From NCBI GenBank assembly GCA_963806155.1, contig CAWDXC010000009.1, positions 198,520 through 262,519 of the forward strand: a DNA stretch of 64,000 nucleotides. Direction: 5' to 3'. A model generated the notes under the pieces. It was not told the DNA's origin. It made no database searches and saw only the letters and a program-made list of their open reading frames with translations. Both the position numbers and the translations under genes were made by a program. Shown piece by piece: positions 4,179-60,491 of the stretch (the first letter of the stretch is position 1; each line of letters opens with the position of its first letter). The DNA comes from an uncultured Actinomycetes bacterium. GTDB lineage: Bacteria > Actinomycetota > Thermoleophilia > RBG-16-64-13.

Positions 4179-4925
4179 CTATGGTTCGAAGGCTTTCCTC
4201 ACGTCGTCGGTGACGCCCTTCTTGAAGGCTTCGAGCTTGGCTTCACCGGCCGGGGTGATATGCAACCGCCCGCCCTCGACCCGGACGTAGCCTATGACTT
4301 CTACCTCGTCGGTGAGCGCCGCTATGAGCACGGGCGCGGCCAGCGGGTAGATCTTCTCCCGGTGCGCCGAAGAAAGCTTGTCCCGCACGTCCTCCACGCC
4401 GATGCCGTCGTTCTTCCTCACCACCTCCAGAATTGCCATCTGCTTGCGGAAGTAGGGGGAGGCCTCCCCCTTCTCCGCTAGGTCGAAGGCCTCTACCCTG
4501 AAGAGAGCCGAGGTTCGAGCATCCGGGCAAATGACCATCACCTCTTTGAGGACGTCCCGCTGGGGATTGGTGGGGTAGGTGAAAGATCCCTTGGGCAGAA
4601 GGGCTTTCAGAGTGTGGGGAGGTTCCGGGATATCCTCCGGCAACGCCCGCCAGCCGGTCCCATCGTAGTCCTTCATGCTCGCGTCTCGGGCGCTGAGCGG
4701 CGCGTACCAGAAAGGAGAGTAGTAAGGCGGCTGTACGTAGCGAGGTCCGGCGTCGTACACGGCCTCGATCTTCGGCATGAGAACGCCGATCACGTGCGGG
4801 CACAGCCGGCCGTGGAACTGCTCGCCGTCGAACACCACCTCGTCCCCGATCTGGTAGCTGAAATGACAGGGGTACTTCTGCTCGTCTCCCAAAAACTCCA
4901 CCAGCGTGGCTTTAACCTGGAACAT
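4179..4925 (-). CDS. uncharacterised protein with N-terminal TIGR04076-like Cys-containing domain and ~160-aa C-terminal extension
   Basis: ORF 4179..4946; N-term MFQVKATLVEF..YPCHF..GDEVVFDG..GRLCP resembles the TIGR04076 small-protein family; paralog at 62444..63199 (~55% identity). Confidence 0.6.
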   Translation of the reverse strand: MFQVKATLVEFLGDEQKYPCHFSYQIGDEVVFDGEQFHGRLCPHVIGVLMPKIEAVYDAGPRYVQPPYYSPFWYAPLSARDASMKDYDGTGWRALPEDIPEPPHTLKALLPKGSFTYPTNPQRDVLKEVMVICPDARTSALFRVEAFDLAEKGEASPYFRKQMAILEVVRKNDGIGVEDVRDKLSSAHREKIYPLAAPVLIAALTDEVEVIGYVRVEGGRLHITPAGEAKLEAFKKGVTDDVRKAFEP

Positions 4926-5116
4926 ATCTAGCTCGCTTCCTGCCATTTAACTCGTGGCTCCGTGTTGGCTTCGCGCACAGGGCAATTCGATGTCGGCTTC
5001 GCCTGGGTGCCGCCCTGGTATCACCTCGGTCGACCCTCGTTACTTCGCCAAGTATTAGTCGCCGGAGAACGCACTAGACTGCTCCGCCGAGGAGTTGCTC
5101 GGCATGCCAGATGCGC

Positions 5117-6195
5117 TCACGCGTTAACCGAGTCTACCAATGCTTGGACGTTCTCGAACTTCGCGTCGGGCGGGACAGCGCAGCCCTGAGCCATGATATA
5201 ACCGCCCGGGCCCAACTCCGACAGCAGTCGCCTGCAGTAGGCCCTTACCTGATCGACCGTTCCCAGGGTGAGCAGGGCAGGAGGCACGTCGCCCATGAGA
5301 CACATATGCCCGTCCAAGATGCTCTTGGCCCTAAAGATGTCGGTCTTCCCGTCGAGAGTCAAGATGCACCGAGCCTTGGGCAGCTCGAGAAGGCGTTCGA
5401 TCTCCCGGTCCCAGTTGGCGTCGCAGTGAAGAATGGGGGTGCCGCCTTCCTCGGCCACGATCTCGACGAGCTCTTTCATGTAGGGCCAGACGAATGCGGT
5501 TCCACAACTTCGGGGCAAGGAACTCCGGAGATGCGCGCCAGCTACCCACCTGGTAGCCGTATGGCCCGATCGCACGCACCGTCTGGCGGGCCTCCTCCCG
5601 CCTTTCCACCATGATGACGTCCATGACGGCCTGCACCTTGTCGGGCACTTGGTATAGGTCGAGTATGAACTCCTTGACCGAACGCCCTCCGCTGAGTTGC
5701 TCGAAGGGGACGACGATATTCGGCTGCGGTGAAGGCCACGTAGCCCCGCTTCATGCACTCCCCGGCCCAGCGCGGCCCCGCCCGCATGATCGCCTGGGCG
5801 GCAGCGACCTCTTCCTGGAGATACTTGCCGATGTACCCGCCTAGCCAGGCCACTCCAGCCCATCGTCGAGGATCCTGTCGTAGTCCTCACGCTGCATCCG
5901 CATCTGCTCGTCCATTTGCCACAAGCTGTCTTCGGGCAGGTCGCGGCCGGGCAGTTTCACGGGCGTCAGCCAGATCATGCCGAGCAGTTTGGGAATGGTC
6001 GGTGGCGAACTGGATGGCGTCCACGTCCCCCAGCTTCTCCAGGGTAGCCAGAGCGGCCGCGCCGGCCACGTCACCGTCGACCGAGTAATCCGACATCTTG
6101 AGTCCCATCGTGCGAGCCGCAAAGCTGTCGAATAACAGGCAGACCGGCACACGGTCGGGAGTACCAAGCGCGACGGCAGTCTTCAGACGGGTCAT
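5117..6195 (-). pseudogene. uroporphyrinogen-decarboxylase-family (MtaA/CmuA-like) methyltransferase remnant, at least 4 frameshifts
   Basis: URO-D-like N-term (5887..6195: MTRLKTAVALGTPDRVPV), middle pieces (5841..6167, 5542..5853, 5331..5648) and C-term (5117..5890 frame: ...ILHCDANWD...MAQGCAVPP) lie in four different frames. Confidence 0.6.
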
Positions 6196-6321: not shown

Positions 6322-8064
6322 TCAGTCTTGCGGAATCACGGGCAGTAGGAGGTGAGAGGGGTAAGCCGCATTGTGGAAGACCTTGTGCAGCACGGTCTTG
6401 CTGCTGCAGACATGCGGGCCGATGTACTCCACCGCGGTTTCCCCTGCGACCCCCTCGGCCAGGTCGAGGCTGGTGATCTCCAGGCAGATCCGATGTCCCG
6501 CCTTGAACATGTTCGCGGTTGACAGGATCTCGATCTCATACTCGTTCACTTCCCCGGGCATCACCGCCTGAGTCTTGTCGGGTGTCAGGTAGTGCCAGGG
6601 GCGTCCGGGTTTGGAGCGCTCCGGGTCGATGGCCCGGTAGGAGGCCTTGAGCCAACCCCGAGTCAGCTCGCGCTCCGGCAGATCCTTGGGAACCTCGCGC
6701 TCACCCATGCGGGCCGTCTGTACGGAAACGTCCGGGCCCACATCTTTGAGGATGACGATCCAGTTCGTGTCGTCCTGGTCGAGCGAGGCGTAGAGGGTGA
6801 GGGAGATGGGACCGGCGACAAGTGTGTCTTCGGACAGGGGCGCCGTCATGTAGCGAAGCCGCTCGATCGTGTTGGTCTGAGTGGGCGGCATCTGGACGAA
6901 AGCGTCCGGCGGCTCGTTGACAAAGGTATCGGTCTCCGGGAGATGACCCTTGGTGTCGAGCTTCTCCCAGCTGTGCAGGTAATAGGGGGTCCAGACCGTC
7001 TCGGGCAGGGGCCAATCCTGCCCGGTCCGCCACTTGTTCTCCCCCATCACCCAGTACCTGACCGGCGGCTCGTCCATGATGCCGGTGTCGATTCCCTTGA
7101 GCCAGTAGTCGTACCAGCGCAGGATCTCGTCGTGCCAATCGTGGAAGGGCCGCTCGCAATGGGCTGGGGGCGTGAGCAACAACTTCTTGTTCGGGGTGTC
7201 GATGCCCATGAAATGATGCTGGGCGCCCTGCCAATGCATCTTGTAGGTGTACGCACCCTCGAAGGCCCCGGTGCAGAAGGGGATCTTGATCCTGCTCAGC
7301 CGCTCCTCGGCTTTCGCCACCGCGTCGGGAGTCTCAAAGGGGAAGACAAGGGTGTAGAAGACGGCCGGGTCGCGCTGCCCCTTGAGGGTCAGGATATTGT
7401 AGAGATTCACGTACATCATGTAGTCCGGGTTGGCCATGGCCGACTGCCAGGCCTCTTCGACAGGCGGGGGAAGCTCCGGCGGCGTGTCGATGATCGTGTG
7501 GAGGCTGTTGTTCAAGCCCAGGTGGTAGAACATGGTGCCGATGACCCCGCCCGGATGCGCTTCGCGGAAGCCGATCGGCCCTCCGTACAGCCCGGTGGCG
7601 TCAAGGGGGAAGATGGCTTTCAGGGCCGGGTGCTGTTGCGCGGCCGCCTTCCATTGCTGTCCTGCGAAGCCGGACAGCCCCACCATGCCGATGTTGCCGT
7701 CGCACCAGGGCTGGGCGCAGATCCACTCGAACATGTCGTACTCGTCCCACTCGCCGCCCTCTTCGGGCATACCCTCCGACTTGTGCCCACCGCGCACCTG
7801 TCCGATGACGTGCACGTAGCCGTTGGCGACGAAACGCTTGCTGTCACCGGCTTCGATGATGCCGTACCACATGGTGGACCAAGCCGGCTGGCCGACTTTG
7901 AGGTTCTCTGCGACTTCGACCCGCTGCAGATCCTTGTTGTGCATGGCGGTGGCGTAGAGCACCGGATACCTGCCGGGCGCATCCGGCCGGTAGACATCCA
8001 CCATCAGCTTGACGCCGTCGCGCATGGGGACGGGAACGTCGTACTCCTTGATCATGCCGGGCAT
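6322..8064 (-). CDS. CocE/NonD family hydrolase (S15 X-Pro dipeptidyl-peptidase-like alpha/beta hydrolase)
   Basis: 580 aa intact ORF; GGGAGGG SD 7 nt before ATG; N-terminal region and 580-aa size typical of the CocE/NonD family; paralog at 9682..11445. Confidence 0.8.
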   Translation of the reverse strand: MPGMIKEYDVPVPMRDGVKLMVDVYRPDAPGRYPVLYATAMHNKDLQRVEVAENLKVGQPAWSTMWYGIIEAGDSKRFVANGYVHVIGQVRGGHKSEGMPEEGGEWDEYDMFEWICAQPWCDGNIGMVGLSGFAGQQWKAAAQQHPALKAIFPLDATGLYGGPIGFREAHPGGVIGTMFYHLGLNNSLHTIIDTPPELPPPVEEAWQSAMANPDYMMYVNLYNILTLKGQRDPAVFYTLVFPFETPDAVAKAEERLSRIKIPFCTGAFEGAYTYKMHWQGAQHHFMGIDTPNKKLLLTPPAHCERPFHDWHDEILRWYDYWLKGIDTGIMDEPPVRYWVMGENKWRTGQDWPLPETVWTPYYLHSWEKLDTKGHLPETDTFVNEPPDAFVQMPPTQTNTIERLRYMTAPLSEDTLVAGPISLTLYASLDQDDTNWIVILKDVGPDVSVQTARMGEREVPKDLPERELTRGWLKASYRAIDPERSKPGRPWHYLTPDKTQAVMPGEVNEYEIEILSTANMFKAGHRICLEITSLDLAEGVAGETAVEYIGPHVCSSKTVLHKVFHNAAYPSHLLLPVIPQD

Positions 8065-8508: not shown

Positions 8509-9399
8509 TTGTCAAGCAATACCAGCATATGTGTTACACTTGGCTCACCTGATGAGTCACTACTACAGGGAACGGCTGAATTGAGGGACACCCAGCAGGA
8601 ACTCGAGCAGAAGGATGCAGGACGAGTGGCCACTGCCCAGAACGGGGGCGGAGTCCGGGCGCTGGAGCGCGGTCTGCAACTCATCAAGTGCTTCGATATC
8701 CAGCACCCAAGCTGGCGGATCGCCGACCTCGCCAGGGAGGTGAATCTCCACAAAGCGACGACACGCAGACTGGTCAAGACGCTTGAGTCGGAGTCATTTC
8801 TTGTCCTCGATCCTGATTCCGGAGAATACCGGCTGGGTTCCGCGCTTCTCCCGGTGTCGTATGTCGTCCGCTCTCACAACGAGCTGGTCCGAGTGGCCCA
8901 CCCATTCCTCGAGCAGTTAGCCGCCCGCACGGAGGAGACAGTCGGGCTCGCCGTATGGACGAGTCGCGGCATCATGCACGTCGACCACGTGTCGACCGTC
9001 CACTTCTTCAAGCCAGTGTTGATAGCCGGCAATGTCTCGACCACGTACGGCACTACTCATAGTAAGATCCTTCTTGCCTTCGGTCCCGAAGAACGGCTGT
9101 CCAAGCTATCCATCGGCGACCGCGCTGCCAGCCTGACGCTGGCCGAAGCTGCGAGACTGCACGAGGAACTGCAGAAGGTGCGCGAGTCGGGGATCGCTTA
9201 CGACGTCGAGGAGAGAGCCAGGGGTGTCTGTGCGGTTGGCGCGCCGATCAGGGATGGCTCAGGGGAGGTCGTCGCTAGTCTCTCGGTTGTCGTTCCCACC
9301 GACCGCTTCGGGCCGACGGAGCGCGAGTCGGCGACGGATGCGATCAGGGAAACGGCGATAGCCATATCTCGCGAGCTGGGGTTCAAGGAGGAGAGATAG
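8509..9399 (+). CDS. IclR family transcriptional regulator
   Basis: HTH (IADLAREVNLHKATTRRLVKTL) plus IclR effector domain; only ATG in frame is 8509, true start may be internal. Confidence 0.8.
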   Translation: MSSNTSICVTLGSPDESLLQGTAELRDTQQELEQKDAGRVATAQNGGGVRALERGLQLIKCFDIQHPSWRIADLAREVNLHKATTRRLVKTLESESFLVLDPDSGEYRLGSALLPVSYVVRSHNELVRVAHPFLEQLAARTEETVGLAVWTSRGIMHVDHVSTVHFFKPVLIAGNVSTTYGTTHSKILLAFGPEERLSKLSIGDRAASLTLAEAARLHEELQKVRESGIAYDVEERARGVCAVGAPIRDGSGEVVASLSVVVPTDRFGPTERESATDAIRETAIAISRELGFKEER

Positions 9400-9681
9400 C
9401 GGATCGTCGGACTATCAGTCCGGTGGCTCCATCGGACTGATAGTGAGATAGGGCCCGTTTCCAGCCGTGACAGCTAGTGACGGGCCCTGACGTTTCCCTG
9501 CAAAACTCGGTCTTGCCCAGATCCGTCCTGACTGTTCGTGACGCTCCGTCTTCAGCGGTTCGTTTGCAGAATGTTTGCAGAATGCCAGCATGAAATGGCC
9601 CCTCGCGACCCGATTTCCTGGCCGCCAGAGCGCCTCCCGACCGAGCGACTATCTCTGGGCAAGGGAGAGCCGGTTTTCTGC

Positions 9682-11445
9682 TCACCACTCCGGGATTAAC
9701 GGCAACAGCAGATGCGACGGGTACTCAGCATTGTGGTAGACCTTGTGCAGCACCGTCTTGCTCGAGCAGACGTGGTTGGGGATGTACTCCACGGTGGTCT
9801 CCCCGCCCACACCCTCGGCCAGGTCGAGGCAGGTGATGTCAAGACAGATGCGGTGTCCCTCCTTGAACAGGTTGGCAGTGGAGAGGATCTCGATCTGATA
9901 CTCGTTCACTTCGCCGGGGACTACCGGCTGGATCCTCTCAGGGCTGAGGTAATGCCAGGGCTTCCAGGGCTTCGTGCGCTCCGGATCGAGCGCCTGGCGG
10001 GAAGCCTTGAGCCAGCCGCGGGTCAACTCCCGTTCGAGCAGGTCGGCTGGGACCTCGCGCTCGCCCATGCGGGCGGTCTGGACGGAGACGTCGGGGCCCA
10101 CGTCCTTGAGGATGACGATCCAGTTGGTGTCGTCCTGGTCGAGTTCGGCGTATAGGGTAAGCGAGATAGGGCCGATCACCAGGGTGTCTTCGGCCAGAGG
10201 CTCGGTCATATAGCGGAGCCGCTCGATCTTGTTAGTTTGGGTAGGGGGCATCTGCACAAAGGCATCGGGAGGCTCGTTCACGAAGGTCTGCGTCACCGGC
10301 AGATGTCCCTTGGTGTCGAGCTTCTCCCAGCTGTGCAGGTAGTACTTGGTCCACTGCGTCTCGGGGAGCGGCCAGGCGGTCCCTTCGCGCCATTTGTTGG
10401 CGCCCATGACCCAGGTCCTGACCGCGGGCTCGTCGGCCACACCGTTGTCGATCCCCTTGAGCCAGTGGTCATACCAGCGGATGATCTCGTCGTGCCACTG
10501 GTGAAAGGGCCGTTCGGCATGGGCCGGCGGAGTGACGAACAGCCTCTTGTGGGACGCGTCGATGCCCGCAAAGAAGTTCTGGGCCCCCTGCCAGTGCATT
10601 TTGTAGGTGTAAGCACCCGCGAAAGCCCCGGTGGTGAAGGGGATCTTGATTCTCTTGAACATCTCCTCCGTGCGCTCGATCGTGCCCGGGCGCTCGAAGG
10701 GGAAGAGCAGCGGGTAGAACATGCCCGCGTCCCGCTGCCCGCGCAGGGTTAGGATGTTGTACAGGTTCACGTACATCATGTAGTCAGGGTTCTGCATGGC
10801 CTCCTGCCAGGCGGCCTCCACCGGCGGGGTAAGCTCGGGAGGCGTACCGATGTGCGTGTGCAGGCTGTTGTAGAGGCCGATGTGGTAGGGCATGGTCTGG
10901 ATGACTCCGCCCGGGTGCTGGTCGCGGAAGCCTTCCAGACCTCCGTAGCAGCCTCCCGCATCCAGGGGGAAGATGGCCTTGAGGGCCGGGTGCCCCTGGG
11001 CGGCCGCCCGCCACTGCTCGGCTGCGAAGGCCGAGAGTCCCACCATGCCGATGCTACCGTCACACCAGGGCTGGTCCACGATCCACTCCATGGTGTCGTA
11101 GTGGTCCCAGTCGTCGTTGGTGAACAGGTCGCCTTCGCTCTTGTGGCCGCCCCGTACCTGGCCGATGACGTGCACGTAGCCGTTGGCCACAAACCGCTTG
11201 GAGTCACCCCCTTCGATGATGCCGTACCACTGGGTCGACCAGGCCGGCTGTCCGACCTTGAGGTTTTCGGCCACCTCCACCCGCTGCAGGTCTTTGTTGT
11301 GCAGGGCGCACGTGTAGAGGACTGGGTACTTCCCCGGCGCGTCCGGGCGGTAGACGTCGACGCGCACGGTGACGCCGTCCCGCATGGTTACGGGAAGGTC
11401 ATATTCCTTGATCATCGTGTCGTAGTAGGTGTGGTCGTCTGACAT
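9682..11445 (-). CDS. CocE/NonD family hydrolase (paralog)
   Basis: ~70% identical to 6322..8064 protein; GGAG SD favours ATG 11445 (MSDDH..) over 11457. Confidence 0.8.
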   Translation of the reverse strand: MSDDHTYYDTMIKEYDLPVTMRDGVTVRVDVYRPDAPGKYPVLYTCALHNKDLQRVEVAENLKVGQPAWSTQWYGIIEGGDSKRFVANGYVHVIGQVRGGHKSEGDLFTNDDWDHYDTMEWIVDQPWCDGSIGMVGLSAFAAEQWRAAAQGHPALKAIFPLDAGGCYGGLEGFRDQHPGGVIQTMPYHIGLYNSLHTHIGTPPELTPPVEAAWQEAMQNPDYMMYVNLYNILTLRGQRDAGMFYPLLFPFERPGTIERTEEMFKRIKIPFTTGAFAGAYTYKMHWQGAQNFFAGIDASHKRLFVTPPAHAERPFHQWHDEIIRWYDHWLKGIDNGVADEPAVRTWVMGANKWREGTAWPLPETQWTKYYLHSWEKLDTKGHLPVTQTFVNEPPDAFVQMPPTQTNKIERLRYMTEPLAEDTLVIGPISLTLYAELDQDDTNWIVILKDVGPDVSVQTARMGEREVPADLLERELTRGWLKASRQALDPERTKPWKPWHYLSPERIQPVVPGEVNEYQIEILSTANLFKEGHRICLDITCLDLAEGVGGETTVEYIPNHVCSSKTVLHKVYHNAEYPSHLLLPLIPEW

Positions 11446-11663
11446 TAGGTGCTCCATTCCTCACTGGGTCTAGTACTGCGCTTGCTAGGGCCGGGCCCGG
11501 GTGGCGTTCGACGGGCACATCCTTGGTCGAGACGAGCATGTCCCCATCCTTCTCCTGTAGCAGTATCCACTTGAGCCAGGCGGCGTCATCGCGCTCCGGC
11601 TGGTCCTCGCGCAGGCGTCAGCCCCCGCTCTCTATCCACGGCGATATGCCTTAGAAGTCCCCG

Positions 11664-13094
11664 CTAGTAGTTCATGGGCTGTAGTTCGACGGCCGGAACC
11701 ATGGGGGCCAGGCCGTTGCTCACCACGACCACCTCGTAGGGCCACTTGGTCCCCTTCACCCATTGCTGCCCGGTCATGAGGGGCTTGACGATGTTCGGAT
11801 GGGGGCGGGTGCCGGTAGGCGACATAGGATTCTGATCGAGCGGAGCGGTCATGTCGATGGGACCGAGAATCGTCTCCATCTTGGTGGTCGTGATGGCTTC
11901 AAGGATGGATTCCTTGTCATCCGGATCCTTGGTGCGACTAAGCACGTCGATGGCCCAGCTGATCTTGGCGTGGCCACCGATCGCCCCCGTCCATTCGCTG
12001 CTGGTGGTCTTTTCGTAGTCATCTGCCAGTTCCTGACAGGTCATTCCCGTAACCGAATCAGTGAAGGGGAAGGTGGGGTGCCACGAGCCGTCCGGACCGA
12101 TCAGTCCATACACGCTCGGCCCGATGGCCTCCGCGGCCTGGGGAAAGCCTAGGGCAAGGGCTTGACTGGCGACGGGCGGCTTGAAGCCTTGCTGAAGGCT
12201 CTGCTTCCAGAAGTTGGTGAAGTCGGGAGTGGTGCTGGCACCGGTGAGCACCTCGCAGCCCTCCTTCTTGAACAGGCTTATCTGGGCGGTGAAGTCCTCA
12301 CTGCCCGGGGTGAAGAGTCCAGGTGCCACGATCGTGTATCCGGCAGCTTCGAGGAAGGGGGGAGCACCGGTGGTCTCGTCGAGCCAGGCCATGCCGTCGG
12401 CGTTGTTCATGGCGAGGAAGGCGACCTTCTTGTTGGTCGGGGTCCTATCGAAGATATCGACCATGGAGGCGCAGACCTGCTCCAGGCCGAGAAGTTGGCC
12501 GAATGTCCACTTGAAGGGCTTCTCGAAGCTACCTCCCCGACCGAACACGAAAGCCGACCAGATGTTGAAGCAGCTGAGGAAAGGGGTCTCCAGAGCCTCA
12601 GCCTGGTCGGCCGCCGGGTTCACCGTATCAGGCGAGCCCGCAGCCAGAAGGAGGTCCACCTTGTCGTTGGTGATCATGTCACCCGCCACCTGGGCCGCCC
12701 GGTTGGAGTCGGATTGGGTGTCGCGGAAGATGATGCTGACGGGGTGATTCTTGCCGTCGCCGAGCACCAGCCCGTCCGCAAGTGTCTTATTCGTAAGGTC
12801 GGTCGACCACTTGTCCGCGATGCCGAAGACGGCGAGCATTCCCGTTTGAGGAGAGACCACGCCTATCTTCATCTCTCGGCCGGCCTCGGCAGCCGTGCTC
12901 ACCGTGGTAGTACTCGCCCCGGTCGTCGAGGTAGTGGAGGCCGCCGTCGTCGCAACCGCGGCGGTAGTGGTGGTCTCCTTCTCCTCGCCACAGGCCGCGA
13001 CCAACCCACCAAGGCCAGCGCTCACCCCTATTGTGGCGCCGGCTAGGCCGGCGATCTTGAGGAACTCCCGGCGGCTTACTGATTCCGTTTCCAT
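11664..13094 (-). CDS. ABC transporter substrate-binding lipoprotein, PBP1 (Liv/aromatic-acid binding) family, paralog 1
   Basis: ORF 11664..13142; ATG 13094 with GGGGGAG SD; Tat/lipoprotein N-term SRREFLKIAGLAGATIGVSAGLGGLVAACG plus Thr-rich linker; conserved ...VELQPMNY C-terminus shared with paralogs. Confidence 0.85.
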   Translation of the reverse strand: METESVSRREFLKIAGLAGATIGVSAGLGGLVAACGEEKETTTTAAVATTAASTTSTTGASTTTVSTAAEAGREMKIGVVSPQTGMLAVFGIADKWSTDLTNKTLADGLVLGDGKNHPVSIIFRDTQSDSNRAAQVAGDMITNDKVDLLLAAGSPDTVNPAADQAEALETPFLSCFNIWSAFVFGRGGSFEKPFKWTFGQLLGLEQVCASMVDIFDRTPTNKKVAFLAMNNADGMAWLDETTGAPPFLEAAGYTIVAPGLFTPGSEDFTAQISLFKKEGCEVLTGASTTPDFTNFWKQSLQQGFKPPVASQALALGFPQAAEAIGPSVYGLIGPDGSWHPTFPFTDSVTGMTCQELADDYEKTTSSEWTGAIGGHAKISWAIDVLSRTKDPDDKESILEAITTTKMETILGPIDMTAPLDQNPMSPTGTRPHPNIVKPLMTGQQWVKGTKWPYEVVVVSNGLAPMVPAVELQPMNY

Positions 13095-13144
13095 GACTCC
13101 CCCTTGGTGCTGTGCTTGTAGACCCGCTGCTCCGAAGAGCACTT

Positions 13145-13162
13145 GGTAAACGATCGTTTACC
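13145..13162. promoter_or_regulatory. perfect 18-bp palindrome GGTAAACGATCGTTTACC, candidate TetR operator in SBP promoter
   Basis: perfect inverted repeat read directly from sequence; 50 bp upstream of SBP start, 70 bp downstream of TetR gene. Confidence 0.5.
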
Positions 13163-13231
13163 ACGCTAGCAAGACCAAGCTAGCAGAACCAAGGAAGCTG
13201 GTCAATGTAATGCGAGTCTTGCTTCGTGCCG

Positions 13232-13885
13232 CTAGGAATCGCTCTTGCGATTCCGGGAGGGAGAAGCCGCCACGTCCGCGAGCATACGCCGGAAGATCCT
13301 GGTAGACGCGCCGCTGGTGATCAGCTGGTCCACTCCCATCAGCCGGGCGACATCCTCTGCCCAGGCGAACATGAGAAGGCTCCAGGCGACATCGCCGGAA
13401 TCGACCTCGGGGCGGATGCTTCCCTCCCGTTTCCCCGCTTCGACGAGATCGACGAAGGCATCGAGGACTCTGAGCTGCCTCACACCCATCTCCCTGCTGA
13501 GACTCCCCTGTCCGCCGGCGGCGATGAACTCGAACAGCGGATGGATGAACGTTTCGAACTCAGAAGAAGCCCAAGAGGCGTGGCGGTCACCCATATCGAG
13601 GAGACGCCTATAGACGTCGGGTCCAGATGATTGGGCCACCCAACCCGGGGGACGTTCTTCCATAAGGTCCATGGCAGCCAGAAGGACCGCTTCCCGGCTG
13701 GGGAAATGCTTGTAGAGAGCCCCTCGTGAGAGTCCTACGGCTGCGGCGATGCGAGAAACCGTCGTGCCGTGAACGCCATACTTGGCCACCAACTTCAGGG
13801 TGGCTTCGGCGATCTCTCTCTGTCTCTCGACCTTTGTTCGCCGAGTGTACTTGTGGGGTTTCTCCAACGGGCCTCCCGTGGCCAC
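13232..13885 (-). CDS. TetR/AcrR family transcriptional regulator
   Basis: HTH REIAEATLKLVAKYGVHGTTVSRIAAAVGLSRGALYKHF; GTG start at 13885. Confidence 0.8.
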   Translation of the reverse strand: MATGGPLEKPHKYTRRTKVERQREIAEATLKLVAKYGVHGTTVSRIAAAVGLSRGALYKHFPSREAVLLAAMDLMEERPPGWVAQSSGPDVYRRLLDMGDRHASWASSEFETFIHPLFEFIAAGGQGSLSREMGVRQLRVLDAFVDLVEAGKREGSIRPEVDSGDVAWSLLMFAWAEDVARLMGVDQLITSGASTRIFRRMLADVAASPSRNRKSDS

Positions 13886-14194
13886 AGGGCTTCATCCACA
13901 GTGGGTCATCTTCTCACAGTGTCGCTTCCGGAGCCTCACCCGGGAGGAGAGAACGTTAGCAGGCTTCACATGGAGGACCGAGACTGGGTCCAGTAACGAC
14001 GCCACACCGGTATCGACGGGGTTACCTGCCGACGTGCCCACTGTAGGGATTACCCCCATCGGCCAGGGGATGGTGACTTCGTTGAGTGGAGATCCGAGGA
14101 TAGGACGCCAGCACAGTGACCCTCTCATCGACAGCTCCGCAGGCAATCGCCCCGTTGCCAAGCAACAGGAGGCGTGAACCCGGCGCATCGGACG

Positions 14195-15040
14195 TCACCC
14201 CGCGCTTTCCCGCGCGCGGTATCCCAAGACAGCGGAAAAGGACTCAGCAGCGGCTTTGACAGCATCGGCATGCAACTGCTGTTGCTCCGGTCCGAAACGG
14301 CCGGGCGGAGCGAGCACGCCCATAGAGGCGACGACCTTCCCCAACTGGTCCCTGACGGGGGCAGCCACGGCACATGTCCCGAGGTCTCGTTCCTCGAAGT
14401 CGTAGGCCACCCCGTCTTCCCGAATCCTGTCTAGCTTGAGGGTCAGGGCCTCGAGGTCGGCGGCGGCCTGCGAAGTGGGTGGATGAAATGGAGCAGCAAA
14501 GACCCGCTCGCGTTCCAGCGGGGACATGTGCGCGACGAAGACCTTCCCGTGGGCGCTGGCCTCGTATCCAATCACACGACCAGGCGCTAATTGTCGCCTA
14601 AAGGGACGAGGCGTGTGAATGCTGTCGATCTCGACGGCGACCCCGTCAACCTCGATTGCCAACGTTACTGTCTCGCGGGTGCGACTCGCCAGATCCTCGA
14701 GATATGGCCGAGCGAGCCTCGCCAATTCACCAAAACGTTGAGAAGAGACATACGTCGCGGCCAAGATCGCCGGACCCAAGCGGTAGCGATTGGTTGCCGG
14801 ATCGCCAACCAGATAGCCTTCGCTCTCAAGGGTTCTCACCACGCGATAGACGGTCATACGCGGCAACCCAAGCTCCTCGGTGATCTCATCGACTGTCCAT
14901 TCAGGACGAAGTGAATCGAACAGGCCAAAGACGGCTAGTCCCTTGACCAGCGCTTGCAGAAGCACCCGGTCTGCGGCAGAGGAGTTGTTTCCCGAGCTTT
15001 CCTGCTTGGATCGATTCCGCGCCCCGATCTTTCTCGCCAT
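14195..15040 (-). CDS. IclR family transcriptional regulator
   Basis: ORF 14195..15070; GGGAGGA SD 5 nt before ATG 15040 (MARKIG..); IclR HTH and effector domain, ~40% identical to the 8509 IclR. Confidence 0.85.
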   Translation of the reverse strand: MARKIGARNRSKQESSGNNSSAADRVLLQALVKGLAVFGLFDSLRPEWTVDEITEELGLPRMTVYRVVRTLESEGYLVGDPATNRYRLGPAILAATYVSSQRFGELARLARPYLEDLASRTRETVTLAIEVDGVAVEIDSIHTPRPFRRQLAPGRVIGYEASAHGKVFVAHMSPLERERVFAAPFHPPTSQAAADLEALTLKLDRIREDGVAYDFEERDLGTCAVAAPVRDQLGKVVASMGVLAPPGRFGPEQQQLHADAVKAAAESFSAVLGYRARESAG

Positions 15041-15354
15041 CAGTCCTCCCAATAGGCCGCCGGAATCCAATGGTTCGGCTGGCTGTGTCCAAGGACATTA
15101 TAGTAGCTTGACATGGGCCATTTGCGTAATCATAATTTCTTAATCGACAGTATGTGCCAGTAGCTCCGCGGAGCCAAGAGAGGAAATCGAGACACGCTAT
15201 TGGAGGTTGGGAGCCGCTCACCGGATGAGCGAAAGGAGGCAGGAGGCACCAATTCCTGGCTGGCGCAACGGCAACCCGGTTCTTGATGAAGAAGATGAAG
15301 CGGAAGCTCGGCCGAACGTGAATCCACACATGACATGACCGAAGGAGAGGGGAA

Positions 15355-16842
15355 ATGTCGGACAGCCCACACAGTCATCAATCGGAAGATACGGAGCCGG
15401 CAACCCTTGTCGGCAAGGGCGTGAGTCGACGTGAGTTTCTCAAGACGGCTGGTATCGCAGGCGCGACTATCGGCATCGGCGGCGGTCTGGGGAGCCTTCT
15501 TGCCGCATGCGGCGAAGAGGAGACTACCACGACGGCTGCTGCCGAAAGCACCACGACCACAGCCGCAGCCACCACAACCACAGCCGCGGCCAGCACGACT
15601 ACTGTCAGCGCTGAAGCGGAAATGGGACGCGAACTCAAGATCGGTTTTGCCTCGCCGCAGACCGGCGTCCTGGCCTTCTTCGGCGTCCCCGACAACTACT
15701 GCGTCGACCGAGCGACGGAGGCCATTGGCGACGGCCTCGTGTGCGCCGATGGTAAGAAACACCCGGTCACCATCCTTGTTCGCGACACCCAGTCAGACAC
15801 GAACCGCGCCGCCCAGGTGGCCGGGGATATGATCAACAACGACAAGGTGGACCTAGTGACGGCTGCCTCCACCTCCGACGTCGTTGTCCCCGTGGCGGAC
15901 CAGTGCGAAGCGGCCGGCATGCCCTGCATCAGCACCGACATCCCCTGGAACAACTACATATTTGGGCGGGGCGCTACTCTCGATAAGCCGTTTACCTGGA
16001 CCTACAACGTCTTCTGCGGCATGGATGATTTCTATGCCAACTACATCTATTTCTGGAACCAGGTGGAGACCAACAAGAAGGTGGCTTTCCTCAATTCCAA
16101 CGACGCTATGGGTCAAGCCACGCAAATGTCGGCCGAGGCGTATTGCCCGCCCGCCGGTTACACCCTGGTTTCTGCCCCCCTCTACAACGTGGGCACCGAG
16201 GACTTCTCCTCGTCCATTGCTCTCTTCAAGAAAGAGGGCTGCGAGATCATGCACGGGAGCGCCAATCCCGGGGACTTCGCCAACTTCTGGAACCAGTGCC
16301 TGCAACAGTCTTTCCACCCCAAGACCGCCGCCTGGTTTGTGGCTCTGATGTTCCCCGAGGGGGCCGCTGCTCTAGGCGACCTCGTCATCAATCAGAACGC
16401 CGATCTGATCTGGCACAATTCGTTCCCCTTCACCTCCCCTCTTCTCGGTGATACCTGTCAGCAGTTTGCCGACGAGTACGAAAAGAGGACGGGCGCCAAG
16501 TGGAACGTGGCGCTGTGCCACGGCATACTGTTCGACTGGGCAACAGATGTCCTCATGAGGACGGCGAACCTCGACGACAAGAACTCGGTCCTTGAGGCTG
16601 CAAAGACGACGAAGATGGAGACTATCGGCGGCGCGATCGACTTCACGGCTGCCGTTGATACGTCCACCACCGCTCACGGACCACGGCGGATCAGCCAGAA
16701 CTGCTATACGACCCCCCTTGCCATCGCTCAGTGGCGGAAAGGCACAGGCGCGTTCCCTTACGATCAGGTGGTCGTCGGCAACACAGCTGCTCCGATGGTC
16801 ACGATTCAAGACAAAGTGCAACCGCTCACGTACAGCAATTGA
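15355..16842 (+). CDS. ABC transporter substrate-binding lipoprotein, PBP1 family, paralog 2
   Basis: AGGAGAGGGGAA SD; SRREFLKTAGIAGATIGIGGGLGSLLAACG lipobox, Thr/Ala linker. Confidence 0.85.
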   Translation: MSDSPHSHQSEDTEPATLVGKGVSRREFLKTAGIAGATIGIGGGLGSLLAACGEEETTTTAAAESTTTTAAATTTTAAASTTTVSAEAEMGRELKIGFASPQTGVLAFFGVPDNYCVDRATEAIGDGLVCADGKKHPVTILVRDTQSDTNRAAQVAGDMINNDKVDLVTAASTSDVVVPVADQCEAAGMPCISTDIPWNNYIFGRGATLDKPFTWTYNVFCGMDDFYANYIYFWNQVETNKKVAFLNSNDAMGQATQMSAEAYCPPAGYTLVSAPLYNVGTEDFSSSIALFKKEGCEIMHGSANPGDFANFWNQCLQQSFHPKTAAWFVALMFPEGAAALGDLVINQNADLIWHNSFPFTSPLLGDTCQQFADEYEKRTGAKWNVALCHGILFDWATDVLMRTANLDDKNSVLEAAKTTKMETIGGAIDFTAAVDTSTTAHGPRRISQNCYTTPLAIAQWRKGTGAFPYDQVVVGNTAAPMVTIQDKVQPLTYSN

Positions 16843-26323: not shown

Positions 26324-27259
26324 CTAGAGCTCGAGCTCCGGGGGCAGAGGCGGCATCTGGCCGGCCAGTTCGGCGATGAGCCCCTCGTACTTGGCAAGCC
26401 GCGAATCGATGTCGATCTCGCCGCTGCGCGCCGCCTGCGCAGCGAGGAACAGCCACAAGTGAGCGCGAAGCAGGTCCGCCCGCGTGTGATTCCCTGGAGA
26501 GACCGCTCCGAAGACCGTCTCCTGGTAGGCGCCGAACAGGCTCAGGGCTATGAGGTCATCACGCGCGGCCGGTCTTCCCGCAGGCGCGGGGACCGCCGTG
26601 AGCTCCTTCATGATGCGCGCCACAGTACCGGCGAGACCTTCCTGGATGGACCGGCGCAGGTCGACGTCCTCCTGCGTTCCTTCCACGCGGATCACGGCAA
26701 AGGCGGCCACACCGAGTTGAAACACGCGAAAGTGGCTGAAGACGTCCCACAGCAAGCGCTCCGCCGGATCCTCCAAAGAAGCCGTCTTCTCGTCGGCGTA
26801 GCTGACACCCCAGTTCGTCAGCACACTCACGCATTCGGCCAGGAGCCTGCGTTTGCTGGGAAAGTGGGTGTAGAAGAGACTGGCGGTGATGCCCAGCCGA
26901 CGCATGAGGGTGGAGACGTGCGTGTTCTTGTAGCCCTTGGTGGAGAACTCGCGCGTGGCAAGAGCCAGGATGCGATTGTGCATCCGCTCATACTCCAGAG
27001 ACACAAGATCCACCGCGGTCTCGTTCGCCTGGTCGACGCGATGCTGAAGTCTATCCTCGATCTCGAGGATGGAAAGTCCGGTCCGTTTCAGCTCGGCGAT
27101 CTCCTGCAGGATCTTGACGTGGTCTTCGGTGTACAAGGATCGGCTGGCAGCGGTCTTCTGAGGGCGGGGGAGCAATCCCAGCCTGAGATAGTAGTGGATG
27201 GTGGTTCGGGGTACCCCACTCACCTTCTCGAGCTCCCGAATGGTAAACGCCTGGATCAC
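26324..27259 (-). CDS. MerR-HTH / TetR-like fusion transcriptional regulator, paralog 1
   Basis: N-term MerR HTH TIRELEKVSGVPRTTIHYYLRLGLLP, then TetR-like HTH domain (~residues 90-150); GTG start with GAGGAG SD. Confidence 0.75.
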   Translation of the reverse strand: MIQAFTIRELEKVSGVPRTTIHYYLRLGLLPRPQKTAASRSLYTEDHVKILQEIAELKRTGLSILEIEDRLQHRVDQANETAVDLVSLEYERMHNRILALATREFSTKGYKNTHVSTLMRRLGITASLFYTHFPSKRRLLAECVSVLTNWGVSYADEKTASLEDPAERLLWDVFSHFRVFQLGVAAFAVIRVEGTQEDVDLRRSIQEGLAGTVARIMKELTAVPAPAGRPAARDDLIALSLFGAYQETVFGAVSPGNHTRADLLRAHLWLFLAAQAARSGEIDIDSRLAKYEGLIAELAGQMPPLPPELEL

Positions 27260-31407: not shown

Positions 31408-32439
31408 TTGATCCCGGTACTCACTATCCGAGATCTCGAGGAATCGAGCGGGGTTCCGCGGACCACGATCCACTACTATCTGAGCATAGGCCTGCTCCCC
31501 CGCCCCCAGAAGACCGCCCGTAGCCGGTCTCTCTACACCAGGGACCACCTCGACATACTGCGAGAGATCGTGGAGCTCAAGCAGGCCGGGCTCGCTCTGG
31601 AGGAGATCCAAGCACAGCTGCAGCATACGGTCGACCGGGCCAACAACGGCGAGGTTGATCTTGCCGCTCAAGAGCATCGGCGCGTGCACGATAGGATCCT
31701 GGCTCTGGCTGCCCAGGAACTGGTCGCAAAGGGTTATAGGAAGACGCATGTCACGACTATTGTGCGCAAGCTCGGCATCACCACAGCCGTCTTCTACAGC
31801 CATTTTCCGAGCAAGCGCGCGCTCCTCTCGGAATGCGTCAGCGCGCTTCTGGGCTGGGGCCTCGAGTTTGTAGATGCCAAAGAGGCCTCGACGGACGACC
31901 CGGCCGAGCGCTTGCTCTGGCTTGTCTTTGGGCATTCGCACGTGTTTCAACTCGGCTCGACCGCCATGGCCCTGACCCGCGTCGACGGCGTCCAGGACGA
32001 GAGCGACCCACAAAGGCCTATGGAGGCGCTCTTCAAAAACATCGTGGAGCACATCAAGGGGGACCTGGCATACGTGCCCAGCGAAGGCTCGAAGCCACCC
32101 GCGGTGCCGGACGAACTCGTGGCCCACAGCCTGTTCGGTGCATATGAGCAGACTGTATTCAGGTCATTCTCGGACAAGATGTACACCCGTGAGGATCTGC
32201 TATTGACTCACCTATGGCTGTTCTTGGCCGTGCAGGCTGCGCGAAGCGGCGAGATCGACGTCGATTCAAGACTGGATAGATACAGGGAACTGGTGTCACA
32301 GCTCGCCACCCAGATGCCGCCTCTTCCCCCGCTCTTGCAGAATGAGAGCACCCATGACCGAGGCGGGGGGACGACGGCCGATCGGATGACTGCTGATGGT
32401 TTATCCCCGATCACTACGCAAGCTGACTCAATGACTTGA
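31408..32439 (+). CDS. MerR-HTH / TetR-like fusion transcriptional regulator, paralog 2
   Basis: TTG start with AAGGAG SD 6 nt upstream; LTIRDLEESSGVPRTTIHYYLSIGLLP MerR HTH plus TetR-like domain; ~55% identical to paralog 1. Confidence 0.7.
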   Translation: MIPVLTIRDLEESSGVPRTTIHYYLSIGLLPRPQKTARSRSLYTRDHLDILREIVELKQAGLALEEIQAQLQHTVDRANNGEVDLAAQEHRRVHDRILALAAQELVAKGYRKTHVTTIVRKLGITTAVFYSHFPSKRALLSECVSALLGWGLEFVDAKEASTDDPAERLLWLVFGHSHVFQLGSTAMALTRVDGVQDESDPQRPMEALFKNIVEHIKGDLAYVPSEGSKPPAVPDELVAHSLFGAYEQTVFRSFSDKMYTREDLLLTHLWLFLAVQAARSGEIDVDSRLDRYRELVSQLATQMPPLPPLLQNESTHDRGGGTTADRMTADGLSPITTQADSMT

Positions 32440-59552: not shown

Positions 59553-60491
59553 TCAGCCCTCGAGGATCGGCGGCAGCGGCGGTGCGTCTGTCGCCAGGCG
59601 GTCGATCAGTTCGTTGTAACGACTCATCCGCGAATCAATGTCTATCTCCCCCCTTCTTGCCGCCTGAACGGCTAGGAACAACCACAGGTGCGTCTTCAGC
59701 AGGTCCTTGTGGCTGTACTTCTTGTCGGAGAACATGCGAAAGATCGTCTGCTCGTAAGCACCCAAGAGGCTATGGGCGACAAGCTCGTCGGGGACCGCGG
59801 GTGGCTTCGCGCCTCTCGCCGAGGTGTCGGCGAAATCTCTGGTAATGCGCTCGATCACGCCTTCGAGAGCTTCCTCGATGGGTTTGCGCAGTTCGCTATC
59901 GTCGTGTGTCCTCTCCACCCGGACAAGGGCGAGGCCCGACGAGCCCAGATCGAAGACATGAAGGCTTGCGAATGCCAGCCAAAGCAGTCTCTCGGCGGGG
60001 TCCTCCGTCGAGTCGCGTTTCGAGTCCCCATACGTGAGGCTCCAGGCCATCATCACCGAGACGCATTCGGCAAGAAGTCGCCGTTTGCTGGGAAAATGGC
60101 CGTAGAAGAGGCTTGCCGTTATCCCGAGCTTCTTCATGATCGTAGTCACGTGGGTGCTCTTGTAGCCTTTGGTGGTGAACTCCGCCACGGCCACCGCGAG
60201 GATGCGGTTGTGGACCCGCTGGTACTCCTGCGCGACCAGATCGACTCCGGCTTCATTGGCGCGATGGACCCGGGGCTCCAGTTCGGTCTCGATCTCGTCG
60301 AGAGACAGGCCGGCCTCCTTGAGCTCCCCGATCTTCTTGAGGATCTCCGCGTGCTCCTCGGTGTAGAGCGATCGGCTGGCGGCGGTCTTCTGAGGCAGGG
60401 GAAGCAGCCCCTGCCTCAAGTAATAGTGGATGGTGGTCCGCGGCACCCCCGTGGCCCGTTCGAGCTCCCCGATGGAAAGGACTTTGACCAC
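59553..60491 (-). CDS. MerR-HTH / TetR-like fusion transcriptional regulator, paralog 3
   Basis: GTG start with AGGAG SD, immediately downstream of the AOR stop; LSIGELERATGVPRTTIHYYLRQGLLP. Confidence 0.7.
   Translation of the reverse strand: MVKVLSIGELERATGVPRTTIHYYLRQGLLPLPQKTAASRSLYTEEHAEILKKIGELKEAGLSLDEIETELEPRVHRANEAGVDLVAQEYQRVHNRILAVAVAEFTTKGYKSTHVTTIMKKLGITASLFYGHFPSKRRLLAECVSVMMAWSLTYGDSKRDSTEDPAERLLWLAFASLHVFDLGSSGLALVRVERTHDDSELRKPIEEALEGVIERITRDFADTSARGAKPPAVPDELVAHSLLGAYEQTIFRMFSDKKYSHKDLLKTHLWLFLAVQAARRGEIDIDSRMSRYNELIDRLATDAPPLPPILEG

Follow-up and report, generated by a model that had tools for sequence, protein, structure and literature searches.

The longest perfect palindrome in the window (the whole 64-kb stretch of DNA that was analysed), TGGTAAACGATCGTTTACCA at 13144..13163, is very probably the operator for a TetR-family repressor whose gene lies immediately upstream of it. 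As judged from the sequence, this candidate operator would repress the gene for a solute-binding protein, SBP1, and probably also a CocE/NonD-family hydrolase gene. It looks like an ordinary type of TetR operator that belongs to an uncharacterised clade of the family. For a lineage that is known solely through metagenome-assembled genomes, the analysis thus offers a concrete candidate set of regulator, operator and promoter.

The palindrome and the genes around it

The local genes are arranged, all on the minus strand, in the order IclR, a 309-bp gap, TetR, a 137-bp gap that contains the palindrome, SBP1, a 206-bp gap and the CocE/NonD hydrolase. A second IclR-family gene lies on the plus strand beyond the hydrolase. 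The features referred to in the text are as follows.

8509..9399, plus strand: IclR-family gene on the far flank of the unit, beyond the hydrolase
9682..11457, minus strand: CocE/NonD-family (S15) hydrolase, probable second gene of the controlled unit
11664..13094, minus strand: SBP1, Peripla_BP_6 solute-binding lipoprotein (PF13458, E = 9e-35), ATG at 13094
13097..13105, minus strand: Shine-Dalgarno sequence AAGGGGGAG of SBP1, conserved in L001-L003
13129..13140, minus strand: small hairpin GCTCTTCGGAGC with a 4-bp stem and a UUCG loop, in the predicted SBP1 5' UTR after the palindrome
13144..13163, no strand assigned: candidate TetR operator TGGTAAACGATCGTTTACCA, half-site TGGTRAACG, core TAAACG-AT-CGTTTA
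13163..13190, minus strand: 14-bp tandem duplication GGTTCTGCTAGCTT / GGTCTTGCTAGCGT, holding the -10 and a decayed second copy
13177..13182, minus strand: predicted -10 element TAGCTT (TAnnnT type), 17 nt from the -35
13200..13205, minus strand: predicted -35 element TTGACC of the SBP promoter, the promoter assignment being inferred from conservation
13232..13885, minus strand: TetR-family regulator gene, 217 aa (PF00440, TetR_N helix-turn-helix at residues 25-71, E = 2e-14)
14195..15070, minus strand: IclR-family gene upstream of the TetR gene

The gene map bears out the sequence-only reading in placing the palindrome between the TetR gene (13232..13885) and SBP1; it is 68 nt from the former, and SBP1 is the first gene downstream of it. 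The same reading had described a perfect palindrome of 18 bp at 13145..13162, in DNA of 65% GC, and had taken its length to make chance very unlikely. The 18-mer, GGTAAACGATCGTTTACC, was confirmed, and its perfect dyad continues for one base on either side to give 20 bp. The measured G+C content of the window is 62%, and the argument from length was overstated: in Markov-1 simulations the expected number per 64 kb is 0.41 for perfect palindromes of 18 bp or longer and 0.13 for those of 20 bp or longer, so that length alone is weak evidence. Because a second perfect 18-bp palindrome, AGGGGGAGGCCTCCCCCT, is present at 4454..4471, inside a long open reading frame on the minus strand (4179..4946), palindromes of this size are not rare in the window. 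What is unusual is the A+T-rich make-up of the site, as a 20-bp palindrome with at least six A:T pairs out of ten is expected only 0.003 times per window. The palindrome sits in one of the window's few intergenic gaps, and its dyad symmetry falls within the size range of TetR operators (~12-30 bp). It occurs as a single copy in the 64 kb, even when three mismatches are allowed. Scored with a position weight matrix (PWM) built from the sites of related loci, it reaches 25.1 bits, compared with 6.9 bits for the next best position. Since the matrix finds no second site in the 64 kb, the TetR has one apparent target within the window. Neither the mismatch search nor the PWM found a copy of the motif upstream of the TetR gene in the window, and autoregulation is therefore not evident there.

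Upstream of the TetR start, at ~13890..13950 on the minus strand, about 60 nt are conserved between the window, L002 and L003 despite the different genes that lie upstream in each. This stretch contains CACTGTG-N12-CACTGTG and no operator-like dyad; it could be the promoter of the TetR gene itself, or some other site.

The predicted structure of the TetR protein is all-helical (pLDDT 88.9) and has the canonical TetR fold. Its recognition helix reads LSRGALYKHF. The best fold match of the model in the PDB is the uncharacterised 3qbm (TM 0.76, 22% identity), and the best PDB match by sequence (E = 5e-10) is likewise an uncharacterised protein. A close characterised relative that could serve as a guide to the ligand was sought; both PDB searches, by sequence and by fold, gave generic TetR matches only. 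Assignment of the protein as an orthologue of a TetR defined in NCBIfam was rejected, with all scores far below the cut-offs. TetR homologues are present in metagenomes, where their labels include Thermoleophilia or Actinobacteria.

SBP1 has a Cys lipobox and an SRREFLK signal of the twin-arginine type, and its neighbours include no ABC permease or ATPase genes. No terminator was predicted in the 206-bp gap between SBP1 and the hydrolase gene, and scans with E. coli-consensus promoter and terminator models found nothing in 9300..11800. An 81%-identical orthologue of the hydrolase is encoded within the TetR- and motif-bearing unit of L001. The hydrolase gene thus probably belongs to the SBP transcription unit.

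Further modules of similar content are found nearby (6322..8064, 8509..9399, 14195..15070 and 15355..16842); they comprise a second CocE/NonD hydrolase, a second Peripla_BP_6 solute-binding protein and the two IclR genes, suggesting that the neighbourhood is an array of uptake and hydrolysis modules, each with its own regulator. The second Peripla_BP_6 protein of the window shares 48% identity with the L002 orthologue of SBP1. The convergent gap between the plus-strand IclR gene and the minus-strand S15 hydrolase gene contains inverted repeats at 9411..9488 (ACTATCAGTCCGGTGG / CCATCGGACTGATAGT, together with a 19-nt pair at 9450..9488) and a perfect tandem repeat, GTTTGCAGAAT, present twice at 9562..9583. 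These repeats may be terminator hairpins or the site of another regulator. Weak TetR-type helix-turn-helix matches (tblastn E = 1e-4 to 0.01) were seen at 31693..31827 (plus strand), 60051..60188 (minus strand) and 26819..26977 (minus strand), and the dyad was not found near any of these three in the window.

Conservation of the site beside TetR homologues

The strongest argument against chance appears to be the conservation of the site beside homologous TetR genes elsewhere. The genome scan, which took one genome per species, recovered further loci from metagenome-assembled genomes of uncultured Actinomycetes, Gaiellales and Thermoleophilia. Loci L001-L015, in which the TetR is at least 50% identical to that of the window, represent 13 distinct loci, L004 being the same as L003 and L005 the same as L001. 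The motif T-R-AAC-N3/4-GTT-Y-A adjoins the TetR gene in all 13 of them (TetR 50-96% identical; uncultured Actinomycetota genomes), lending support to the proposal of the sequence-only reading that the palindrome is an operator candidate for the adjoining TetR. Within the clade the core is TRAAC-N4-GTTYA, with a three-base spacer in L006, and lies within ~200 bp of the TetR gene; at every locus with a TetR homologue of at least 50% identity it is promoter-proximal. The motif also occurs in L021 and L024, which hold apparently frameshifted TetR copies, in the metagenomic locus L205 and in a distant TetR locus of Agromyces luteolus (L068). Searched against the 685 kb of L001-L083, the pattern with the four-base spacer, TRAACNNNNGTTYA, gave 17 matches, every one of them beside a TetR gene; shuffles averaged 0.5 matches and never gave more than 3.

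The loci with the most similar TetR proteins (L001-L003, 85-96% identical) retain both promoter and duplication in the same place, together with a dyad that is imperfect. Their dyads are:

L003: TGGTAAACGACCGTTCACCG
L002: TGGTGAACAGCTGTTTACCA
L001: CGGTAAACGACCGTTCACCA

At the centre of the L002 site CGATCG is replaced by CAGCTG, a symmetric double change, so that the dyad is preserved. The four closest intergenic regions (the window and L001-L003) are 86% identical over their whole length, and for this reason these four loci alone do not demonstrate selective constraint on the site.

The regulator and the site are constant, and the target varies, with at least four target types:

Window, L002, L003: SBP gene, co-directional with TetR
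L008, L205: SBP1 orthologue (52-53% identical), divergent
L001: ferredoxin / FAD_binding_2 flavoprotein / 81%-identical S15 hydrolase, replacing the SBP
L006: two-domain VOC/glyoxalase protein, divergent
L007, L009-L015: 369-aa Zn-dependent dehydrogenase, divergent

Homologues of 61-66% identity are located upstream of VOC, SDR, FAD_binding_2 and ferredoxin genes. The dyads of L008 (TAAACACTTGTTTA) and L205 (TAAACGTTCGTTTA) follow a TTGACA-17-TACAGT promoter directed at the SBP gene. Since the SBP gene is divergent in these two loci and co-directional in the window, L002 and L003, the triple of SBP, TetR and dyad is found in two independent gene orders.

Across the loci compared, presence of the motif is shown to track the recognition helix of the TetR. 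All motif-bearing loci share a helix of the type (L/I)(S/A)RGALY(K/Q)HF, and the paralogues L016-L020, L022 and L023, in which the TetR is at most 45% identical and helix 3 is different, are without the motif; in L016 and L018-L020 the helix reads MEAPSLYAHF. Three of these paralogues, with TetR 42-43% identical, have an upstream dyad of their own (L018 at 3697, L019 at 3702, L020 at 3773), either TACCTAACT-N5/6-TGTTAGGTA or TCCCTAACTC-N4-TAGTTAGGGA.

It is improbable that the palindrome is bound by some other regulator, either one of the neighbouring IclR proteins or a global factor, with the TetR acting elsewhere. Two IclR genes do flank the unit, IclR proteins also bind palindromes, and the TetR gene of the window has no operator copy upstream; in addition, the same 18-22-bp sequence follows consensus promoters in the unrelated contigs L139, L152 and L154, with no TetR nearby. 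However, tblastn with both IclR proteins of the window detected an IclR homologue in none of the 26 TetR-homologue loci (L001-L026), whereas the motif is found in every locus whose TetR is at least 50% identical, and its presence follows the TetR recognition helix.

In L139 (3575..3596), L152 (3493..3514) and L154 (12752..12773), contigs of ~50% G+C, the sequence is an identical 22-bp palindrome, TTGGTAAACGATCGTTTACCAA, set 3 nt downstream of a consensus TTGACA-17-TATAAT promoter. In L139 and, as judged by sequence identity, in L152, the gene that follows it encodes a GNAT acetyltransferase. No TetR-type helix-turn-helix was detected in any of the three contigs.

A search of metagenome contigs with GGTRAACGNNCGTTYACC was less specific. 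Among the 121 matches listed, 69 lie in long open frames, 4 are near a TetR-type helix-turn-helix and none belongs to the TetR clade of the window. As only 4 of the 121 matches listed are near such a domain, GGTRAACGNNCGTTYACC by itself is not diagnostic of the window TetR; the matches listed are dominated by chance or unrelated sites. L191, L093 and L197 contain independent TetR genes whose own promoters carry the same dyad. The first of these, an unrelated TetR gene (PF00440), has two dyad copies at 5300..5400, at its own TTGACA-17-TATACT promoter: AGTGAACGACCGTTTACT inside the spacer and GGTAAACGGTCGTTCACC after the -10.

The SBP promoter, its duplication and the 5' UTR

On the minus strand the TetR stop codon is followed by 26 nt, TTGACC, 17 nt, TAGCTT, 13 nt, TGGTAAACGATCGTTTACCA, 38 nt, the Shine-Dalgarno sequence and the SBP1 ATG. 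In full, the promoter part of the gap reads TTGACC (13205..13200), 17 nt, TAGCTT (13182..13177), GGTCTTGC, TAGCGT (13168..13163), GG, TAAACGATCGTTTA, CC. A promoter scan with the E. coli consensus called nothing in 12900..14300, and for this reason the promoter call rests on conservation across loci and on the TAnnnT rule that actinobacterial -10 elements follow. The oriented consensus of the aligned loci is cATTGACA - 17 nt - TA(C/G)(G/C)TT - GT - TGAACGnnCGTTCA - GG - ATARC, and TTGACC or TTGACA stands at a fixed 17-nt spacing from TAnnnT in 15 of the 17. Transcription would start near 13170, ~7 nt after the -10, in which case the palindrome spans ~+7 to +27 of the transcript.

The sequence-only reading had also pointed to a GCTAGCA-N7-GCTAGCA direct repeat beside the palindrome. 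The repeat is there, at 13165..13171 and 13179..13185. We considered and rejected it as a second binding motif: the gap shows a -10 hexamer and a decayed copy of it, so the repeat is part of the 14-bp tandem duplication, namely the -10 region and its vestigial duplicate. The downstream copy, TAGCGT at 13163..13168, is a vestigial -10 that abuts the palindrome; the upstream one is still in register with the -35. In the window clade the duplication has pushed the dyad 14 bp downstream, and as a result the core begins 16 nt after the -10 and not 2 nt after the TAnnnT element as in the rest of the clade; L006, with the arrangement TAGCGT-GG-dyad, provides the single-copy state for comparison. With these extra 14 bp between -10 and operator, relative to every other clade member, the mode of repression may differ in the window clade.

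The second copy of the unit has diverged in the window, L002 and L001. In L003 (6683..6710; also L004) the unit GGTTCTGCTAGCTT is present as two identical tandem copies, which suggests recent slippage or homogenisation at this promoter.

On the opposite strand of L007 and L009-L015, TATCCT immediately precedes the dyad and is itself preceded, at 17-18 nt, by a hexamer resembling a -35, so that one dyad lies between the face-to-face promoters of TetR and the divergent gene.

A role at the RNA level is very improbable. The palindrome could in principle form a stem-loop in the 5' UTR (8 bp with a GAUC loop) that stabilises the mRNA, modulates translation, or pauses or terminates read-through from the TetR gene. 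It lies wholly downstream of the predicted start in the window clade and hence would be transcribed; the centroid fold includes the palindrome hairpin, and a second small hairpin with a UUCG loop follows (GCTCTTCGGAGC, kept in L002, altered by one change in L003 and lost in L001). The fold of the 5' UTR is, however, no better than that of shuffled sequences (z = -0.22). No Rfam match at E <= 1 and no terminator-like site was found in 12900..14300; the stem is 60% A+T and is followed by AAGTGC, with no U-tract. In the other clade members, where the core begins 2 nt after the -10, the left arm would be partly untranscribed, lying in most of them at or before the start site, and in L191 one dyad copy is inside the promoter spacer. 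For L001 and L003, moreover, the A/G variation at position 5 of the half-site means A·C mismatches in the strand that is transcribed.

Least probable, and largely refuted, is the reading of the palindrome as a feature with no regulatory role, one that arose by chance or is neutral, or that belongs to mobile or interspersed repetitive DNA (the end of a MITE, or a palindrome related to a restriction site, with a CGATCG / GATC core). In its favour, ~0.1 perfect palindromes of 20 bp would be expected in 64 kb, another of 18 bp is present in the window, and 69 of the 121 matches listed for GGTRAACGNNCGTTYACC are inside open reading frames. Against it, the expectation falls to 0.003 once composition is taken into account, and TetR homologues down to ~50% identity keep the site in the same position relative to the promoter. 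The dispersed copies of a MITE or many-locus repeat, which the sequence-only reading had named beforehand as the case against an operator, were not seen: the window has a single copy, and the 685 kb of related loci have copies only beside TetR genes.

Proposed mechanism and relation to known systems

With the palindrome taken as the operator of the adjacent TetR, we infer repression rather than activation, with one TetR dimer per site. Each helix-turn-helix of the homodimer would occupy one half-site, TGGTRAACG. Bound at ~+7 to +27, the dimer would block RNA polymerase binding or promoter escape, and since no terminator separates the TetR and SBP genes, it would also be a roadblock for polymerase reading through from the TetR gene. 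A small molecule that binds the C-terminal domain would release the repressor from the DNA and allow the uptake and hydrolysis genes to be expressed. The inducer would most likely be the transported ester or amide, or its product; the gene contexts invite the speculation that it is a catabolic substrate or intermediate.

A broader reading, which we offer tentatively and consider rather less likely than not, is that the promoter-operator cassette (TTGACA-17-TAnnnT with the TRAACG-NN-CGTTYA dyad) is a portable module of an uncharacterised TetR clade in uncultured Actinomycetota. The module would have been rewired onto at least four units (Zn-dehydrogenase; VOC dioxygenase/SDR/flavoprotein; ferredoxin-flavoprotein-hydrolase; SBP-hydrolase), perhaps forming one dispersed regulon for a cyclic ester or amide, and in the window lineage the 14-bp duplication would have shifted promoter occlusion to a roadblock or escape block. 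The PWM could be used to reconstruct the regulon of the clade and to guess the substrate of SBP / CocE-NonD modules, and TetR/operator pairs are raw material for biosensors. The concepts themselves are unchanged, as TetR repressors acting on AAC..GTT palindromes at adjacent promoters are textbook knowledge.

In the classical tetR/tetA system, one operator region between divergent promoters controls both genes; it contains two operators, and the target is an efflux pump. L007 and L009-L015 resemble this arrangement in having one operator between face-to-face -10 elements, TATCCT for TetR and TAnGTT for the target, and so a single site would control both genes. The window differs: TetR is encoded in the same direction as its target, and only the downstream promoter is served by the site. 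It has a single operator where the classical system has two, and the target is an uptake protein and a hydrolase instead of an efflux pump.

Sites closely resembling this one are known for several characterised TetR repressors, namely KstR, PaaR, BioQ and RolR. KstR of mycobacteria binds as a dimer to the motif TnnAACnnGTTnnA, which is reused at many catabolic promoters including its own (PMC1995591). The half-site logic, T-n-n-AAC / GTT-n-n-A, is shared, whereas AAC and GTT are separated by 2 nt in KstR and by 4 nt here (by 3 nt in L006). The window TetR is not a KstR orthologue, since it scores 25.9 bits against the NCBIfam KstR model, for which the cut-off is 280.

The TetR-family protein PaaR (TTHA0973) of Thermus thermophilus represses a catabolic operon as well as its own gene; it recognises the pseudopalindrome CNAACGNNCGTTNG, and selection experiments gave AACnAACGTTnGTT as its preferred site (PMC6651687). 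Its effector is given there as phenylacetyl-CoA, a pathway intermediate, with reference to Sakamoto et al. 2011. The inner 10 bp of the PaaR site, AACG-NN-CGTT, are identical to those of the window site AACGATCGTT. The flanks differ, being C-N in PaaR and T-R (GGT-R) in the window, and the paa genes are absent here.

Among the sites quoted in PMC9210681, that of BioQ, TGAAC-N3-GTTAC, has a spacer one base off the clade consensus TGAAC-N4-GTTCA. The same source gives the operator of RolR, the TetR-type resorcinol regulator of Corynebacterium glutamicum, as a 29-bp sequence bound by a pair of dimers, with REP1, TGAAC-N4-GTTCA, and a second repeat, TTCAT-N2-ATGAA. RolR was not among the best 60 PDB sequence matches to the window TetR. 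REP1 is nonetheless the same as the clade consensus, the window itself having TAAAC-N4-GTTTA, and in both cases a TetR-family regulator has its site in the promoter of adjacent catabolic genes. The targets differ, and a single dyad of 18-20 bp is conserved here in place of the two repeats of RolR.
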